DNA of 64,000 nt from contig JAYNLI010000004.1 of assembly GCA_038111655.1 (NCBI GenBank), positions 59 to 64,058 of the forward strand, read 5' to 3'. Positions 6,721 through 64,000 of the stretch are shown piece after piece. Numbering within the stretch: the first letter of the stretch is position 1; each line of letters opens with the position of its first letter. Source of the DNA: Bordetella sp. (GTDB lineage Bacteria; Pseudomonadota; Gammaproteobacteria; Burkholderiales; Burkholderiaceae_A). The translations under genes and the position numbers were made by a program. Under the pieces are notes generated by a model, which saw only the letters and a list, made by a program, of their open reading frames with translations, was not told the DNA's origin and searched no databases.

Positions 6721-9700
6721 ATGTCAGAAGTCAGTTTTCTCCCGGGGGCAAGCGCCATCTCGGCCTTCCGTGGTGACCGGCTTCTTTCAGCCGTTGAGGC
6801 GGCAGGTTGTCCAGTCAAAGAATTAAGGTGCTCCTGGGCCTACCTTGTCCATAGCCGTTTTACGGCGGGCTCAGCAGCGGCGCCTTCAGACACCAAGACC
6901 GAATCGGCGCTTTATTCAAGTTTGGCAGCCCTTGTTCGGCTTCAAGGTCCAAGCTTCGGTCCCGTGCCCGCTAATAGCCTCCGGCTTTGGGTCTTTCCGC
7001 GTCACGGGACCCTATCACCTTGGGCCTCAAAGGCCTTCGAGATTGCTCAACGTTGCGGCCTTGAAGACCTCGTTCGTTTTGAGCGAGGTCTGTGCTTTGA
7101 GTTTCAATTTAAAAAGTGGGGGGCTCCGCAGTCGGCGGAAGCTTTACAGACCTTCATTTTTAGTGAAAAGGGTCAGCATTTGTTTTACGACCGGATGACA
7201 GAAGAAGTTTCCTTTAATGAGCCTCCGACACATTTAATTGATCAGCCCCCTGTTAAATCCCTGGAAGTCATTGAGCTTTCCGGAGACAGCAGCCAAAGGT
7301 TGTTCCAGCTACAGGTAGTGAACGCCAGGCTCGGACTTGCTCTGTCGGATGACGAAATGGACTACCTGGTGAAGGCCTATCAGGCAATGAACCGGCACCC
7401 TACCGACGTTGAGCTCATAATGTTTGCCCAGGCCAACTCTGAGCATTGTCGACACAAAATTTTCAATGCGTCATTTACCATTAATTCAAAGCCTCAAGAC
7501 AAATCTCTGTTTCAGATGATTCGACACACCCATGAGGTGGCAGGTCAGGGAACGGTATCGGCTTACGAGGATAATGCGGCAATTTTGCAGGGGCGTCAGG
7601 TCGTTCATTTTCAGTCCTCTGTCGCTAAGCCTGGACCTTATCGTGAGGTTCAGGGGCTCATGCACACGGTACTGAAGGCTGAGACTCATAATCATCCCAC
7701 AGCTATTTCACCCTTTCCTGGGGCAGCCACCGGAGCGGGGGGCGAAATTCGTGACGAAGGAGCAACAGGTCGAGGAGCCGAGCCTCGCGCCGGCCTGGTG
7801 GGTTTTTCAGTATCCAATGTTGACTTCTCTGAGCAGTTTGATGGCCCTTTCCGTCAAGCCTCACCTTTACAGATCATGCTCGAGGGTCCAATAGGTGCAG
7901 CCGCTTTTAATAACGAATTCGGGAGACCGGGTTTGCTTGGATACTTCCGAAGCTTTGAGTTGGGGTTTGATGAACGCCGCTGGGGTTACCACAAGCCCAT
8001 CATGCTCGCGGGTGGCGTAGGGGTCATACATGATGACCTCAGCTTTAAAAAGCCCATTTCAGAGGGGGCCCTGCTAATTCAGCTTGGCGGTCCCGGTATG
8101 CGCATCGGCCTTGGTGGTGGGGCGGCCAGCTCGGTGGATTCCGGTGCCAATTCGGCACAACTCGATTTTGACTCGGTTCAGCGGGGTAACCCGGAAATGC
8201 AGCGCCGCGCTCAAGAGGTCATTGATGCCTGCGTAGCTTTGGGCCCTGAGAATCCTATTCTTTCTGTCCACGATGTGGGTGCCGGCGGCCTATCGAACGC
8301 CTTCCCAGAGCTTGTACATGGCGCAGGCATGGGCGCTGACTTCCAGCTTAATCAAGTGCCTATCGATGACCATTCCATGTCACCTGCCGAAATCTGGTGC
8401 AATGAGTCGCAAGAGCGCTATGTGCTTGCCATTGCCGAGGAGCAGCTGCCCTTGTTCGAGTCGCTTGCTCGTCGGGAACGATGCCCGTTTTCGGTTGTTG
8501 GTCGAGCGCTCTCGCAGGACCGTCTAAGGCTGCTGGCTCCTCAGTTTGATGCCCCGGGCGATTCTAGAAATGGCGTGGCTTCCGGGGAAATCGCCTCAAT
8601 GAACCCGGTTGACATGCCCCTGTCGGTGCTTCTTGGGAAACCACCCCGGATGCAGAGAGACGTCGTTCGATATCAAGCGCAAGCGCAGCCGCTTGATCTT
8701 GTGGGACAGCCCCTCGAGGAACTTGTTCATGAAGTGCTTGCACATCCAACGGTTGCAAGCAAAGAGTTTTTAATCACCATTGGTGATCGCACGGTTGGCG
8801 GTCTTACGGCCCGGGATCAGATGGTCGGTCCCTGGCAGACGCCTGTCGCAGATGCAGCTATTACCCTGTGGGACTTTAAAGGGTTTGGGGGGCAGGCTAT
8901 TGCCCTGGGTGAGCGACAACCGCTTGCCGTGACCGATTCAGTAGCTTCTGTTCGGATGGCCCTCGGGGAGGCTTTAACGAATCTCTTCAGTGCGCCAATG
9001 AACGATCTCTCGACAGTGAAGCTGTGTGCTAACTGGATGGCCGCTTGCGGTGAAAAGGGGCAGGACGCTGCGCTCTACGATGCGGTTGAGAATCTGGCGA
9101 TGCAGCTTTGTCCGCAATTGGGCCTCTCGATTCCTGTGGGTAAAGACTCTTTAAGTATGCGGACAAGCTGGGAGAGTGCAGGTGTGAAGCGCTCGGTTAT
9201 CTCTCCTGTATCTTTGGTCTTAACCGCGGTCACTCCAGTTGACGATGTCCGTCAAGCCTGGACTCCCCGTCTTCGCTCTGAACTCGGTCATACCGTGCTT
9301 ATTTTTGTTGATCTTGCATCGGGTAAGCAGCGTATGGGTGGGTCTGTTCTCGCTCAGTTGCTCGGTGATTTCGGGGGTGAGACTCCCAATCTTGAAGATC
9401 CTGAAGGCCTGCGTCGTTTGCAACGGGTCTGTCATGAGGCGCGTGAACATGAAGGTCTCGTCCTTGCATACCATGATCGCTCGGACGGTGGACTTCTTGC
9501 CTGTCTTGCAGAGATGGCCTTCGCGGGGCGTTGTGGGGTCACCGTCAACCTCGACATTCTTACCATCGACCCGTTTGCCGCTGATTGGGGTGACTTTAAA
9601 ATTCGCCCCGAGCAAGTGGCCGTTCAGCGCGACGAACTGACACTGAAGGCGCTTTTCAATGAAGAGCTCGGGGTTGTGTTTCAGGTGGCACGCGAACGTC

Positions 9701-10824
9701 GCTCAGAATTCATGGATATCCTTCGTAAGCACGCCCTGTCCTCCTGTGCTCATGAGGTTGGTTATTCCAATCCGCGGGATCAGATTGAAATCTATCGTGA
9801 TGCCAAATGCATCTTTCAGCAGCCTCGGGCAAAGCTGCAGGAAAGCTGGTCCAAAGTGAGTTTTGAATTTGCATCCCGGCGCGATAACCCGGCCTTGGCC
9901 AAGCAAGCCTTTGAGGCCTTGCACTTGGCGAACGCCCCCCAGGTGCACCTTCCCGTTGGCCTAGAGAAGCGTCTCTCCGAGCTTAGCTCCGGGGCTCAAG
10001 CAGGTGGAGGGCTAAGCAGCCCAAAGGTTGGAGCGCTTGCGCTTTCAAAGCCCCGGGTTGCTATTCTTCGTGAGCAGGGCGTTAACGGACAGGTTGAGAT
10101 GGCGGCAGCCTTTGAAGCGGCAGGTTTTGAGGCTTGGGATGTCCATATGACAGACCTGCTCGATCAGAGAATAAACCTTGATTCCATGTCAGGCCTGGTT
10201 GCCTGTGGCGGATTTTCATTCGGTGACGTCTTGGGGGCTGGTAATGGCTGGGCGAGCTCCATTCTCTTTAATAATAAGCTTCGAGATCTCTTCACGGCTT
10301 TCTTCGAGCGTAACGACCGTTTTGCCTTGGGTGTTTGTAATGGCTGCCAGATGATGGCTCGTCTGCATTCAATCATTCCCGGCGCAGAGGGCTGGCCGAC
10401 CTTCTTACCGAACGCATCCGAGCAGTTTGAGGCTAGGTTGTCGATGGTTGAAGTGCTCGAGTCGAACTCCATTTTCTTTCGGGATATGCAAGGTGCACGA
10501 CTCCCCGTGGCTGTCTCTCACGGCGAGGGGCGGGTCTCATGGGCGGAGGGCCAAGAGACAAGATCGCAATCGCTTGGCGCGCTTCGGTTCACCGATCATG
10601 GAAAGGCGGCTCAGCTTTATCCAGCCAATCCGAATGGATCGCCGGAGGGGCTGACGGGCTTCAGCAATGACGATGGCAGAGTGCTTGTACTTATGCCACA
10701 TCCCGAGAGGGTATTCAGAAACGTACAGTTTTCTTGGGTGCCCGACACTTTTAAGAACTACAACGATATTTCACCATGGGCCGTCTTTTTCAAGAACGCC
10801 TATGAATGGGTAAGGAAGGTTTAA
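6721..10824 (+). CDS. purL: Phosphoribosylformylglycinamidine synthase (large type)
   Basis: [31 protein letters not shown] and MPHPER motifs. Confidence 0.98.
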
Positions 10825-12440
10825 TGCTTTCAACTGCAAACATCACCATGCAATTTGGGGCCAAGCCCCTCTTCGAGAATGTCAGTGTCAAGTTCGGTAA
10901 TGGCCATCGTTACGGTCTTATCGGTGCAAATGGTTGTGGTAAGTCCACCTTCATGAAGATTCTCGGAGGTGACCTTGAACAGACGTCTGGCGAGGTTATT
11001 AAAGAGCCGGGTGTGCGCCTTGGAAAGCTCCGTCAAGACCAATTTGCCTACGAGGATCATCGGGTTATTGACGTTGTCATGATGGGTCATGAAGAGATGT
11101 GGGCGGCCATGACTGAGCGCGACGCGATTTATGCAAACCCAGATGCCAGCGAAGATGATTACATGCGAGCCGCTGATCTTGAGGCGAAATTTGCCGAGTT
11201 TGATGGCTATACAGCAGAGGCTCGAGCGGGCGAGTTGCTCCTAGGGGCGGGTATTGCACTGGAGCAACACAACGGTCCCATGAGTGAGATTGCCCCGGGA
11301 TGGAAGTTAAGGGTGTTACTTGCCCAGGCGCTTTTTAGTGACCCTGATGTTTTGCTGCTAGACGAGCCAACAAATAACCTTGACATTGACACGATTCGTT
11401 GGCTCGAGGGACTTTTAAACGATCGTGACTGCACCATGATCATCATCTCGCACGATCGTCACTTTTTGAACTCCGTTTGCACGCATATGGCCGACGTAGA
11501 TTACGGCGAGATTCGAATCTACCCAGGAAATTACGACGACTACATGCTGGCCTCTTCCGAGGCTCGTGCTCGCCTTATGGCCGCAAATGCAAAAAGTAAA
11601 GAGCGTGTCTCCGAGTTGCAGGAGTTTGTTCGTCGGTTTGCTGCGAACAAGAGCAAGGCCAAGCAGGCTACATCGCGCCGAAAGCTAATTGAAAAAATTC
11701 AGTCGGAGTCTGTCGAGGTTCGCCCCTCTTCACGGCAGAATCCCTACATTCGATTTGAGCAGGCGAAGCAACTCTATCGACAGGCCGTTCATCTTCAGAG
11801 CATTTCAAAGTCCTACGATGGTGAGGCGGTTCTTAATAAGGTTTCTCTTATGGTCGAGGCGGGCGAGAAGATTGCCATTGTTGGGCCCAACGGAGCAGGA
11901 AAGTCCACACTTATTAAATGCCTTGTAGGTGCCGATCACGAAGGAGTGGCCATTGATAACGGCCTGGTGAAATGGTCTGACAATGCACAAATTGGCTACA
12001 TGGCTCAGGATGTCTATCCCGAGTTTGAGAAGGACGTCCCCTTAACGTCTTGGTTGCAAGCCTATGCCCAAGAAGGAGACGATGATCAAGCCCTACGATC
12101 GATTCTTGGCAGGCTCTTGTTTTCGGGTGATGAAGTTGCCAAGCAGGTTAAGGTTCTGTCAGGGGGTGAAAAGCATCGCATGAGCTTTGGCCGCCTTATG
12201 CTTGAGCGATCGAATGTCTTGGTGCTCGATGAGCCTACCAATCATCTTGATATGGAGTCCATTGAATCCCTGCAGCTCGCTCTCGAGAAATATCAGGGCA
12301 CTTTATTCTTCGTAAGTCACGATCGCGAGTTTGTGAATGCGGTGGCTAACCGCATTCTTATACTGAAGGGTGACGGAAGCTTCATTGACTTCAAGGGCTC
12401 CTACGATGACTACCTTAGCAGTGAGGGGCTAGAGGCCTAA
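10824..12440 (+). CDS. ybiT: ABC-F family ATPase, YbiT-like
   Basis: [25 protein letters not shown] start, two ABC domains, no TM segments; TAATG coupling to purL. Confidence 0.92.
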
Positions 12441-12479
12441 ACCCGAAGACAAGAGCTCAAGGCGCCAAGCCCCCGAGCC

Positions 12480-13442
12480 CTAGTCTGCCTCGTTAAGGCA
12501 GTCCAGCAGGCTGTTGAGGTCCGCAAAGTTAAACTGCGCCGCAGCCTGAATGGCTACCACCGGCTTAGCCCGGTAGGCAAGACTAAGGTGCACTTGGGTC
12601 ATCATGGGCAGGTCGTTCGCTCCATCGCCAATGGCAATGGCCTGTTCACCTGCATCAATACCCCGTTTGGAAGCGGCCTGTAAAACCGATTCTTTTTTGG
12701 CGTTACCATCAACGATCAGGCCAATCACTTCGCCGGTAAGTTTGCCATTTTCCATTCCGAGCGTATTGCAGTGAATTTCGTCGAAGCCCAGTGTCTCTGC
12801 AACATAACCCGTAAAAGGATGAAATCCACCCGAGACTAACAGGCAGTGAAGGCCAGCCGATTTGGCTGCTGCGACCAGTTCCTTTGCACCAGGGTTGAAG
12901 CGTAGTCGTTCGGTTAAGACACTTTGAAGGGCACTCGCGGAAAGATCTTTCAAAAAAGCAACGCGTCGGCGCAGACTCTCTGCGTAATCGGTTATTTCTC
13001 CGCGCATCGCGGCCTCGGTAATACTGGCAACCTCGGCCTTTTTTCCGCAGAAATCAGCAACCTCGTCGAGGCATTCAATTGAAATGACTGTGGAGTCCAT
13101 ATCCATGGCGAGCAGTTTGTAGCTTCCAAGGCTTCGCGGTGAGGGCATAAGTACCAGGTCGATGCCGTACGTCTGGCACTGGGCTTGAAGTTCTGCCGTT
13201 GTATCTCGAGTGAGACCCTGAAGAGCGCCTTTCGTAAGTTTGACGTACGAGGGACGGTTGGTAGGATTCACCACACGCGCCTCTTGAAGACCCTCTTGCT
13301 GGTGCTCAAAAAGATGAAGCAGGTCTTTTACCTTAAACAGTAACTCCTCGGGTCCTCGAGTCGGGTGATGACTCTGGCTGTTTCCTGCCTGTAAAAAATA
13401 AAGCTCCGACTGGCCGGTTAGATCTTCTTTAAGGGAATACAT
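12480..13442 (-). CDS. serB: Phosphoserine phosphatase
   Basis: HAD motifs DMDST, VSGGF, GDGAND. Confidence 0.93.
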   Translation of the reverse strand: MYSLKEDLTGQSELYFLQAGNSQSHHPTRGPEELLFKVKDLLHLFEHQQEGLQEARVVNPTNRPSYVKLTKGALQGLTRDTTAELQAQCQTYGIDLVLMPSPRSLGSYKLLAMDMDSTVISIECLDEVADFCGKKAEVASITEAAMRGEITDYAESLRRRVAFLKDLSASALQSVLTERLRFNPGAKELVAAAKSAGLHCLLVSGGFHPFTGYVAETLGFDEIHCNTLGMENGKLTGEVIGLIVDGNAKKESVLQAASKRGIDAGEQAIAIGDGANDLPMMTQVHLSLAYRAKPVVAIQAAAQFNFADLNSLLDCLNEAD

Positions 13443-61106: not shown

Positions 61107-61661
61107 GTGGTTATAAATACACGGTTAATGGCTCGTCGTTCGATGTCTTGGTCTCTGGGACTAAGCGTGGTGTTCTTCATTGGTGCGTCAATGTTTGTCT
61201 CGTCGGTAGCGATTGCGCAGACCAAAATTGGTTTTGTACGCACTGAAAGAGTTCTTAAGGAATCCGCCCCGGCCCAGGCCGCTCAAAAGAAGCTTGAAAC
61301 CGAGTTCTCAAAACGAGAAAAAGAGCTTCAGGACTTGGCGAGCCGTCTTCGCGGTCTATCAGAGAAGCTTGAGCGTGATCTTCCTGTATTGGCCGAGAAA
61401 GACCGTGTTTCTCAACAGCGCGAAATCACTGATATGGAGCGCGATCTGCAACGAAGGCAGCGTGAGTTTCGTGAAGATTTGAATCAGCGTCGTAATGAAG
61501 AACTGGCAGGGGTCGTCGAGCAAGCCAATCAGGCCATTCGTAAGATTGCAGAGTCTGAAAAGTTCGATATTATTTTTCAAGAGGCGGTCTACGCATCGCC
61601 CAGAATAGACATTACCGACAAGGTCTTGCGTGCCCTTGGAACGAAGGCAGGCGGAAAGTAA
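61107..61661 (+). CDS. skp: Periplasmic chaperone Skp/OmpH
   Basis: Signal peptide, KIGFV, coiled coil, DITDKV; GGAGG before GTG. Confidence 0.93.
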   Translation: MVINTRLMARRSMSWSLGLSVVFFIGASMFVSSVAIAQTKIGFVRTERVLKESAPAQAAQKKLETEFSKREKELQDLASRLRGLSEKLERDLPVLAEKDRVSQQREITDMERDLQRRQREFREDLNQRRNEELAGVVEQANQAIRKIAESEKFDIIFQEAVYASPRIDITDKVLRALGTKAGGK

Positions 61662-62655
61662 GTCTTTGGTTACCTTGGCCTCTGAGCTTTTCAAGCCGCT
61701 TGGGGTCGAGGTTCATGGGGAGTCTTCTCTTAAGCTGACAGGGTTCTCGAGCCTTGACGGGGCGACCGAGACGCATTTCAGTTTTTTGAGGCACGCTCGG
61801 CACCTCGAAGCCCTTCATCGTACAAAGGCGGGACTCGTGATTCTGCCAGAGGATGTCCCGGCTTCAACGGGCGCCTGGCGGGCCTGGGTAAAGGTTAAGG
61901 ATCCTTACCTGGTTTTTGCGAAGGCGGCTGGGTATTTTGTTCAGCAGCGACTTGCTCAGAGCGCCGAGACCTTTATTCACCCCAGTGCGGTTGTTTCGCC
62001 CGATGCCCGAATCTCTCAGGGGTGTCAGGTGCATGCTAATGCTGTGATTGAACGGCAGGCCGAGCTTGGTGCTGGAACCGAGGTTGGGGCGGGCAGTTAC
62101 ATTGGTGAAGGGGTTTGCATTGGTGCGGGAGGCCGGATCGCGCCTCGTGTCGTCATTCAGGCCTCTGCGCATTTGGGGGCGCGTTGTATCGTGCATGCGG
62201 GCGCCGTTATTGGTGCGGATGGCTTTGGCTTTGCAGAGGATCAAGATAAGTCTTGGGTCAAAATTCCCCAGGTGGGTTCTGTGCGAGTTGGCGATGACGT
62301 TGAGATTGGTGCGAATACAACCATCGACCGCGGCACCTTTGCGAATACATGCCTTGGTAACGGGGTGAAACTGGACAACCTGATACAGGTCGCCCACAAC
62401 GTGGAAATTGGTGATCACACGGCTATTGCCGGATGTGTAGGGATTGCAGGCAGTGCGAAGATTGGAAAGTACTGCCAGATTGCAGGGGCCGCGGGTATCC
62501 TTGGGCACTTGTCGATTCCCGATTTCACCGTGGTCGGTCCCATGACTCTGATTCAGTCAAGCATTGATGCGGCGGGTACCTATGTGGGTGTTTTTCCTGC
62601 CATGGAGCACCGACGTTGGGCCAAGGCGGCGGCAAGGCTAAGGCGGGGGCCTTAA
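61630..62655 (+). CDS. lpxD: UDP-3-O-acylglucosamine N-acyltransferase
   Basis: DPYL.FA, hexapeptide repeats, GADGFGF, KIPQ.G, DNLIQVAHN catalytic His; start uncertain. Confidence 0.93.
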   Translation: MPLERRQAESKSLVTLASELFKPLGVEVHGESSLKLTGFSSLDGATETHFSFLRHARHLEALHRTKAGLVILPEDVPASTGAWRAWVKVKDPYLVFAKAAGYFVQQRLAQSAETFIHPSAVVSPDARISQGCQVHANAVIERQAELGAGTEVGAGSYIGEGVCIGAGGRIAPRVVIQASAHLGARCIVHAGAVIGADGFGFAEDQDKSWVKIPQVGSVRVGDDVEIGANTTIDRGTFANTCLGNGVKLDNLIQVAHNVEIGDHTAIAGCVGIAGSAKIGKYCQIAGAAGILGHLSIPDFTVVGPMTLIQSSIDAAGTYVGVFPAMEHRRWAKAAARLRRGP

Positions 62656-62729
62656 TCAATTAAAGTGGCGCTTTACACCGTTCATTCTTTGTTTTTGCGT
62701 CGACGCTATTTTTGGGGAGATTGGCACGC

Positions 62730-63185
62730 ATGACTTTATCTGTGCAGGACATCATTAAAACCCTGCCTCATCGGTATCCGTTCCTTTTGGTAGACCGAGT
62801 GGAAGAACTTATTCCTGGTGAGCGTATTCATGCTTACAAGAACGTCACGATTAACGAAGAGTTTTTTAACGGTCACTTTCCTCACTATCCTGTCATGCCA
62901 GGAGTGCTTATTATCGAGGCCTTGGCGCAGGCGGCAGGTGTTCTCTCCTTCAAAACCATGGAGCAGGCCCCTTCCGAAGACTCCGTTATTTTCTTCGTAG
63001 GCATCGACGATGCTCGTTTTAAGCGGCCTGTTGTACCGGGAGATAGATTGGACCTTCACGTCAGCATCGAGCGTTGTGTAAGGGGTATATGGAAGTACAA
63101 GGCGCAAGCCATGGTTGGGGATCAGATTGCAGCAGAGGCGAATTTAATGTGTGCTTTGCGCGATATTCCCTCAAACGAGGGCTGA
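62730..63185 (+). CDS. fabZ: 3-hydroxyacyl-ACP dehydratase
   Basis: [22 protein letters not shown]. Confidence 0.97.
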
Positions 63186-63197
63186 CGTTCAACGGCG

Positions 63198-63890
63198 TTG
63201 GCGCAGTTGCTGGTCATTGGCGTCGACGAGGCTGGCCGCGGGCCGTGGGCGGGTCCCGTAACGGCGGCTGCGGTTGCCTTGGGCGCCCAGGTTTCTCAAG
63301 AGCTTCTTACTTCGGTTCGTGACTCCAAAGCTTTGAATGCCAAGCGTCGCGAGGCGCTTGTTCCACTGATTAAGTCTCAGGCATATGCCTGGGGTGTTGG
63401 CTGGTCAGATGTTAATGAAATCGATGAGCTTGGCATTCTTAAAGCAACCTTTTTCGCGATGCAGAGAGCTGTTCTACAACTTTTATCAGGCTCCACCCAC
63501 GCCACAATGACCTTGGCGTCGGCGGCTGTGAAGGCGGACCCCGAGTTAAGCTTTTCCAATGTCCAAGAGGTTCATGTCATTGTGGATGGCAACCTTCACC
63601 CGGCGCGTTACATTGGTGAAGACAATTGGCCCTGGCTCACAGAGACCATGATCAAGGCCGACGCTCGGCAGATTGAGGTTGCAGCAGCTTCTATTCTTGC
63701 CAAGACCGCCCGTGATGCGTACATGCTTCACTTGGCCAAAGACTATCCCGGCTATGGGTTTGAGTTCCATGCTGGCTACGGTACAAAACAACATCAAGAG
63801 GCGCTGCGGCTGCTCGGCCCCGCAGCGCCACACCGCAAATCGTTCCGACCCGTACGTAAGCTTCTCGCAAGCTCGAATGACGCAACATGA
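63198..63890 (+). CDS. rnhB: Ribonuclease HII
   Basis: GVDEAGRGP, DSK.L, AASILAK..RD, HRKSF.P. Confidence 0.96.
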   Translation: MAQLLVIGVDEAGRGPWAGPVTAAAVALGAQVSQELLTSVRDSKALNAKRREALVPLIKSQAYAWGVGWSDVNEIDELGILKATFFAMQRAVLQLLSGSTHATMTLASAAVKADPELSFSNVQEVHVIVDGNLHPARYIGEDNWPWLTETMIKADARQIEVAAASILAKTARDAYMLHLAKDYPGYGFEFHAGYGTKQHQEALRLLGPAAPHRKSFRPVRKLLASSNDAT

Positions 63891-64000
63891 GTGGGGGCTG
63901 GCCTATTGATTTGCCACTACGACGTATCTCGTCGAAAGAGAATGATGAGTTTCGCCGTCTTCTTGCCGCGCAGAGTCGGGCGGAGGTTCGAGCGCAGGAG
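63887..64000 (+). CDS. Probable TrmH/SpoU-family RNA methyltransferase, 5' part (runs off window)
   Basis: ATGA overlap with rnhB, open to the edge; RISSKENDEFRRL resembles the TrmH N-terminal I-S-x-x-N motif; usual neighbour of rnhB in betaproteobacteria. Confidence 0.6.
   Translation, partial: MSGGWPIDLPLRRISSKENDEFRRLLAAQSRAEVRAQE

Follow-up and report, generated by a model that had tools for sequence, protein, structure and literature searches.

What has become of lpxA and lpxB in a lipid A gene cluster from which both are missing? The stretch of DNA analysed here, called the window throughout, comprises 64,000 nt (G000:C4:59-64058) of a metagenome-assembled genome of 1.66 Mb from an uncultured lineage (G000; 140 contigs, 89% complete, 53.6% GC). 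Towards the end of the window fabZ is followed directly by rnhB, and the two genes expected between them are not there. The original prediction, made from the window alone, offered two readings: either lpxA and lpxB had been relocated, which it favoured, or the lineage has an altered or absent lipid A pathway.

Gene order at the fabZ-rnhB junction

Open reading frames and NCBIfam scans gave the order glnD and map (both on the reverse strand), rpsB, tsf, pyrH, frr, uppS, cdsA, dxr, rseP, bamA, skp, lpxD, fabZ and rnhB, so that the region from rpsB to rnhB is otherwise canonical, as had been predicted. The native lpxD, encoding UDP-3-O-acylglucosamine N-acyltransferase (61630-62655, forward strand; TIGR01853, 350.8 bits against a cut-off of 242.5), is followed on the same strand by the native fabZ (62712-63185; TIGR01750, 201.6 bits) and by the native rnhB for RNase HII (63198-63890; NF000595, 216 bits), which has a TTG start codon. 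Between the fabZ stop codon (63183-63185) and rnhB lie just 12 nt (63186-63197), which sequence and comparison with congeners mark as the probable site of deletion of the native lpxA-lpxB; they contain no remnant of either gene, and are too short for any. Beyond rnhB, the window includes only the start of a gene for a TrmH/RlmB-like methyltransferase (63881-64000, forward strand), which reaches the end of contig C4.

RnhB loci were compared in 40 relatives. A junction of the same kind (lpxD-fabZ-rnhB, gaps of some 12-30 nt) was found in the closest relatives G011, G013 and G014 and also in G044, making five assemblies in total, while lpxA-lpxB-rnhB is retained in all other congeners with a readable locus and in all of the outgroup families. 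Because the junction recurs in four further assemblies of the subclade, a local misassembly is very unlikely, and the clean absence of both genes from the cluster, which was the central claim of the original prediction, is confirmed.

Some neighbouring reading frames have peculiarities of their own. The RNase HII of the window contains an internal stretch of some 25 residues (about residues 97-125) that is missing in most relatives, whose matches to it are split in two (5-98 and 122-227). On contig C6 of G022, a 99% complete congener, FabZ (aa 62-209) and LpxA (aa 217-474) share a single open frame of 474 aa (L049:2556-3794, reverse strand), which is either a natural fusion or the result of a lost stop codon. 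The LpxA frame of G015 (L043:657-2034) is open for 459 aa and extends about 500 nt into lpxB, which is in a different frame; the cause may be a frameshift or the loss of a stop codon.

The window LpxD aligns to the solved structures of LpxD from Pseudomonas aeruginosa and E. coli, with the catalytic-histidine motif kept, as the original prediction had noted; it is 72-77% identical to its counterparts in the subclade and 45-54% identical to those of other congeners. The alignment to the solved structures reaches to within two residues of its end, and the enzymes of E. coli and P. aeruginosa extend some 17-25 residues further at the C-terminus. The short C-terminal helix suspected earlier is therefore real. 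Any connection with the missing lpxA and lpxB falls away, since the length of this tail varies, and is often short, across the genus (relative to the window protein, G004 has only three further residues and G005 eight). In other betaproteobacteria the tail is longer and coiled-coil-like.

Completeness of the lipid A pathway

Family searches with curated cut-offs were carried out over the whole G000 genome, a check that the original prediction had itself proposed, adding that intact copies elsewhere would reduce the finding to a rearrangement. Intact lpxA and lpxB were indeed located, lying convergently on contig C37 with lpxL alongside: LpxA scored 303.6 bits (cut-off 231) and LpxB 237.6 bits (cut-off 190). 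The remaining enzymes are scattered over the assembly, with LpxC on contig C3 (359 bits, cut-off 187), LpxH on C39 (202.8 bits, cut-off 190), LpxK on C2 (above cut-off) and the N-terminal domain of WaaA on C1 (201.9 bits, cut-off 23.9). As judged by its genes the Raetz pathway is complete, all nine of the steps searched being above curated cut-offs. LptD (206.8 bits) is likewise above its cut-off and BamA is present; the best MsbA-like ABC transporter, at 536 bits, falls short of the curated 602. The searches turned up no further lpxA or lpxB of the canonical kind in G000. The suggestion that the lipid A pathway might be absent is thus refuted, lpxA, lpxB, lpxC, lpxD, lpxH, lpxK, waaA, lpxL and lptD all being intact and accompanied by an msbA-like gene. 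The LpxK match itself (G000:C2:45448-46422; L004/L005) falls in two pieces within a frame of 456 aa, some 120 residues beyond the 324 positions of the model, and the protein may be extended or fused to another.

A gnnA-gnnB-lpxB block convergent with lpxA

The lpxA and lpxB genes of contig C37, outside the window, belong to a block of four genes, arranged gnnA-gnnB-lpxB >< lpxA (>< denoting convergence). On the forward strand gnnA (8434-9414), encoding a Gfo/Idh/MocA oxidoreductase, is followed after 15 nt by gnnB (9429-10526), encoding an aminotransferase of the DegT/DnrJ/EryC1 family, and gnnB overlaps by 17 nt with the co-oriented lpxB (10510-11658). Facing these is lpxA (11627-12445, reverse strand), beyond which lies lpxL (12475-13398, forward strand).

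The position of the block relative to the window was established from relatives. In G011, on a contig of 511 kb, and in G013, an unbroken series runs from lpxD, fabZ and rnhB through the trmH-like gene, ppsR (reverse), ppsA, livHMGF, livK (reverse) and tadA (reverse) to gnnA, gnnB, lpxB, lpxA (reverse) and lpxL. Contig C37 carries the same series from ppsR to lpxL. Since the end of contig C4 falls within the trmH-like gene and the start of C37 within ppsR, and the relatives are contiguous here, the two contigs abut, which places lpxB about 12 kb past rnhB in G000.

Several details of assembly and gene order at this locus may be recorded. Within the subclade livHMGF is situated between ppsA and livK (G000:C37:3110-6650, L066); in the complete congeners G010 and G004 (L170, L171) ppsA adjoins livK. 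In G014, two short contigs each bear the N-terminus of lpxA beside lpxL, and a third bears the remainder of the block (C141, C153 and C243; L209, L211 and L039), which suggests strain heterogeneity or collapse at the locus. G044, which is 97% complete and has a BamA 91% identical to that of the window, shows the lpxD-fabZ-rnhB junction (G044:C1:279000-290769, L203). Neither lpxA nor lpxB was found anywhere in the G044 assembly, where the contig stops just after livF, about 1.7 kb short of the expected block, and their lack is probably an assembly gap.

Origin of the block

With the C37 protein as query, LpxB is 74-83% identical in G011, G014, G041 and G013 and 41% identical in G017; in other congeners the identity is 30-37%. 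Orthologues of GnnB (at least 69% identity) occur together with a divergent LpxB in the same six of the 30 congeners. Judged by BamA and PpsA, G000, G011, G013, G014, G041 and G044 form a tight subclade.

The nearest named LpxA proteins are those of Ectothiorhodospira and Thioalkalivibrio (55-57% identity), and among 80 named loci that were read, at least 20 gammaproteobacterial ones have the order lpxD-fabZ-lpxA >< lpxB-gnnB-gnnA-rnhB. LpxB proteins linked to gnn genes are 36-47% identical to that of G000, compared with 28-38% for canonical ones. In the LpxB trees the gnn-linked proteins, including all six copies from the genus, are split from the others with a support of 100 in a quick analysis (90 rows) and 100/100 in a careful one (42 rows), and the canonical LpxB proteins of congeners are monophyletic (100/100) and lie among those of betaproteobacteria. 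An approximately unbiased (AU) test rejected a single LpxB clade for the genus (p = 3e-62). For LpxA, the careful tree recovers the gnn-type copies of the genus as monophyletic (99/92), inside a clade of gnn-linked gammaproteobacterial proteins (98/94) and sister to the Ectothiorhodospiraceae (87/82), and a single genus clade was again rejected (p = 9e-5). GnnA also groups with Ectothiorhodospiraceae (92), outside a clade (98) of other betaproteobacterial GnnA proteins. Neighbouring and housekeeping proteins serve as controls: in the RnhB tree all rows of the genus lie on one side of a branch with a support of 96, FabZ is 63-94% identical to its congeners and at most 64% identical outside the genus, and RnhB, FabZ, BamA and PpsA all behave vertically. 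On this phylogenetic evidence LpxA and LpxB of G000 are horizontally acquired xenologues, whose donor would have had the Ectothiorhodospiraceae as its nearest sampled relative (as judged by LpxA, 87/82, and GnnA, 92).

Of 400 other genomes sampled from the order, 35 (about 9%) have homologues of GnnA (E of 1e-40 or lower; 34-56% identical), so that the potential to make a lipid A based on 2,3-diamino-2,3-dideoxyglucose (GlcN3N) is not new for the order. The unpublished genome G055 is included both in this figure and, as row L276, in the GnnA tree. A betaproteobacterial donor was considered and rejected: gnnAB layouts in other families of the order differ, for example gnnA-gnnB-lpxA or fabZ-lpxA-gnnA-gnnB, and 18 of 19 of their GnnA proteins fall in the separate clade (98).

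An arrangement of another kind was seen in Simiduia aestuariiviva (L102:5223-6771), where fabZ is followed by two tandem lpxA genes, one canonical and one of the gnn-linked type, with lpxL and lpxB-gnnB-gnnA downstream. The genome may have been sampled while it possessed both types of LpxA.

Insertion site and history of the replacement

In the complete canonical congeners G010 and G004, read in the orientation of the window, the order is lpxA-lpxB-rnhB-trmH-ppsR(reverse)-ppsA-livK(reverse), followed further on by guaB-guaA-tadA. In G017 the four-gene block is found next to guaA, as guaB-guaA-lpxA >< lpxB-gnnB-gnnA, with tadA divergent from gnnA; in G020 guaA and tadA are separated by 40 bp and there is no block. 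The two genomes have PpsA proteins that are 97% identical and flanking DNA that is 88-89% identical, and since one has the block and the other lacks it at the same spot, they differ by a clean insertion of 4.15 kb. No obvious repeats were seen at this insertion. The subclade of the window has the block at this same edge of tadA, with the segment from guaB to tadA inverted as a whole. The subclade lpxL beside lpxA encodes a protein 45-54% identical to LpxL of the congeners, where the gene lies elsewhere, in tandem with a paralogue.

The GC content of the block (53-54.5%) equals that of the genome (53.6%), which makes the acquisition an old one. The PpsA tree does not place G017 as sister to the subclade of the window, yet they have the insertion site in common, which implies either that block and native pair were long present side by side and the block was lost several times, or that it spread inside the genus through recombination in the conserved sequences on either side. 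None of the assemblies contains both gene sets, the fabZ region being unassembled in G017, G001 and G041.

The best explanation of these results, and one in which we place considerable confidence, is xenologous replacement, in which a foreign block of four genes took over from the native lpxA-lpxB. An ancestor within the genus would have gained lpxA >< lpxB-gnnB-gnnA of the gammaproteobacterial type, now most closely matched among named organisms by Ectothiorhodospira and Thioalkalivibrio, and the insertion would have fallen between guaA and tadA, some 10 kb away from the native cluster for lipid A. The native lpxA-lpxB, by then redundant, would subsequently have been deleted cleanly in the subclade of the window, leaving fabZ 12 nt from rnhB. 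Inversion of the guaB-tadA segment, and the bringing of a native-like lpxL to a position beside lpxA, would complete the present arrangement.

Alternative explanations

Loss of the lipid A pathway, or its substitution by another outer-leaflet lipid, would be compatible with the fact that lpxA-lpxB are locally lacking in the window, which is the sole point for it; with nine searched Raetz steps over their cut-offs, LptD and BamA present and a strong MsbA-like match, albeit one below cut-off, we give it practically no credence. A technical artefact, the junction being misassembled or contig C37 a mis-binned contaminant in a genome that is truly canonical, might be suspected from a metagenome-assembled genome in 140 contigs that is 89% complete, the more so as block and window lie on different contigs and breaks in assembly are common nearby (G000, G014 and G044). 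Against this, the junction recurs in five assemblies, single contigs of G011 and of G013 join it to the block, the other genes of C37 (ppsA, the liv genes and tadA) are 80-97% identical to those of congeners, and G000 is without any second, canonical pair. Contamination and misassembly were rejected on the strength of the contiguous relatives and the recurring junction, and we hold an artefact to be extremely improbable. Simple relocation of the native genes by about 12 kb downstream, followed by rapid divergence, was one of the two readings in the original prediction, and it was right in so far as lpxA and lpxB do exist about 12 kb downstream. They are nearby on the same replicon, and the guaB-tadA inversion and the relocated lpxL show that local rearrangement does occur. 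The layouts, the trees and the AU tests identify these copies, however, as xenologues accompanied by gnnA-gnnB in the exact gammaproteobacterial layout, and the native pair as deleted; a single genus clade is rejected for both proteins, the flanking fabZ and rnhB are without any such displacement, and what distinguishes G017 from G020 is a clean insertion of the entire block. Native relocation was accordingly rejected on the trees and AU tests, and is in our view very unlikely.

Identity of GnnA and GnnB and the predicted lipid A

The best match of GnnA to a solved structure is 7bvj (E 5.5e-67, residues 7-310), the next match in the PDB having an E value of 7e-17. Its best NCBIfam match is UDP-GlcNAc 3-dehydrogenase, with a score below the cut-off of that model, which is an archaeal one. 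A preprint cites 7bvj as the model for GnnA, the UDP-GlcNAc 3-dehydrogenase, and a review (PMC11446377) cites a paper on the structure of GnnA from Acidithiobacillus ferrooxidans. The GnnA/GnnB route from UDP-GlcNAc to UDP-GlcNAc3N for lipid A of the GlcN3N type has been described (PMC8036547). In GnnB, the SFFPSK motif with the Schiff-base lysine is kept and aligns with that of WbpE, and the nearest structures are 7b0d, 8e75, WbpE and QdtB. The nearest named of these, WbpE and QdtB, are sugar 3-aminotransferases. The C37 pair is therefore assigned from its sequences as GnnA/GnnB, enzymes predicted to make UDP-GlcNAc3N.

On this assignment GnnA would oxidise UDP-GlcNAc at C3 and GnnB would transaminate the product to give UDP-GlcNAc3N, which the acquired LpxA would N-acylate. 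The native LpxC, LpxD and LpxH would process the N-acylated sugar, and the acquired LpxB would join the two halves. The expected product is a lipid A with a 2,3-diamino-2,3-dideoxyglucose backbone, and since the nucleotide sugar would be UDP-GlcNAc3N, its primary acyl chains would be amide-linked. We consider it likely that the lineage makes lipid A with this GlcN3N backbone. The altered lipid A entertained in the original prediction would then be real, in a milder form than had been imagined, through a known GnnA/GnnB route.

At a threshold of 85%/15%, gnn-linked and canonical LpxA are not told apart by any column of the alignment, so the sequence is silent on the substrate selectivity of LpxA, and a mixed GlcN/GlcN3N lipid A is possible. 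One may therefore ask whether the block is real and gnnA-gnnB nevertheless serve some other glycan, providing for instance a 3-acetamido sugar for O-antigen or capsule in the manner of WbpB/WbpE, or whether LpxA uses mainly UDP-GlcNAc, in either of which cases lipid A would be GlcN-based or mixed. WbpE is among the nearest named solved relatives of GnnB, no LpxA residue tells the two clades apart, and A. ferrooxidans LpxA reportedly accepts both substrates (a finding ascribed to Sweet et al. in 2004). Set against this are the co-orientation of gnnA-gnnB-lpxB and the 17-nt overlap of gnnB with lpxB; the joint travel of the four genes across classes, with the co-inherited LpxB forming a deep clade of its own; and the closest solved structure to GnnA, by 50 orders of magnitude, which is the one cited as a model for GnnA. 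A dedicated role in another glycan, or a predominantly GlcN-based product, thus seems improbable, and a GlcN3N backbone remains the preferred reading.

Implications

A clean hole in a highly conserved proteobacterial cluster need not signify loss of the pathway: here the context of the whole genome reversed the reading. The assemblies together preserve a stepwise record of the replacement of essential lipid A genes, in which one can follow the insertion site, a near relative free of the insert, the removal of the native genes and a subsequent rearrangement. They lead to the prediction of an amide-linked GlcN3N lipid A, for which the LpxB clade that travels with gnnA-gnnB may be specialised.

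It is tempting to go further, and to regard the block as a portable cassette for backbone conversion. It would cross classes, occupy a fixed guaA/tadA site where closely related species are polymorphic for its presence and absence (G017 versus G020, with about 89% identity in the flanks), and render the native lpxA-lpxB dispensable once in place; the deep LpxB clade might then represent a synthase specialised for a GlcN3N-based lipid X, and the backbone chemistry might be rapidly switchable. This idea is put forward tentatively, as a possibility that we would not yet favour. If it were true, free-living bacteria would have a switchable lipid A backbone, perhaps under pressure from phage, predators or antimicrobial peptides.

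Comparison with known systems

In the canonical cluster of E. coli and most beta- and gammaproteobacteria the order is lpxD-fabZ-lpxA-lpxB-rnhB. Its flanks, from rpsB to rnhB, match those of the window, and most congeners retain the full cluster; the window genome differs in lacking lpxA-lpxB at this place, and in having xenologues elsewhere that would supply their function.

The GnnA/GnnB route to UDP-GlcNAc3N and GlcN3N lipid A is said to have been worked out in A. ferrooxidans by Sweet, Ribeiro and Raetz in 2004. The likeness consists in a Gfo/Idh/MocA dehydrogenase and a DegT aminotransferase situated inside a lipid A gene cluster. The order in A. ferrooxidans is lpxA-gnnA-gnnB-lpxB, whereas in G000 gnnA-gnnB-lpxB are convergent with lpxA and lie outside the fabZ-rnhB slot. 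The GnnA/GnnB chemistry is thus already known, and the particular features here are a block of the gammaproteobacterial type, the place where it sits, and the removal of the native pair.

The closest parallel is the gammaproteobacterial layout found in Ectothiorhodospira, Thioalkalivibrio, Thiohalomonadaceae and many metagenome-assembled genomes, which shares all four genes of the G000 block and their relative orientations. Its proteins are the nearest to those of G000 (LpxA 55-57%, LpxB 45-47%, GnnA 62-65% and GnnB 63-67% identity) and are also their neighbours in the trees. In the gammaproteobacteria the block fills the fabZ-rnhB slot; in the betaproteobacterial genome G000 that slot is empty, and the block is placed between tadA and guaA.
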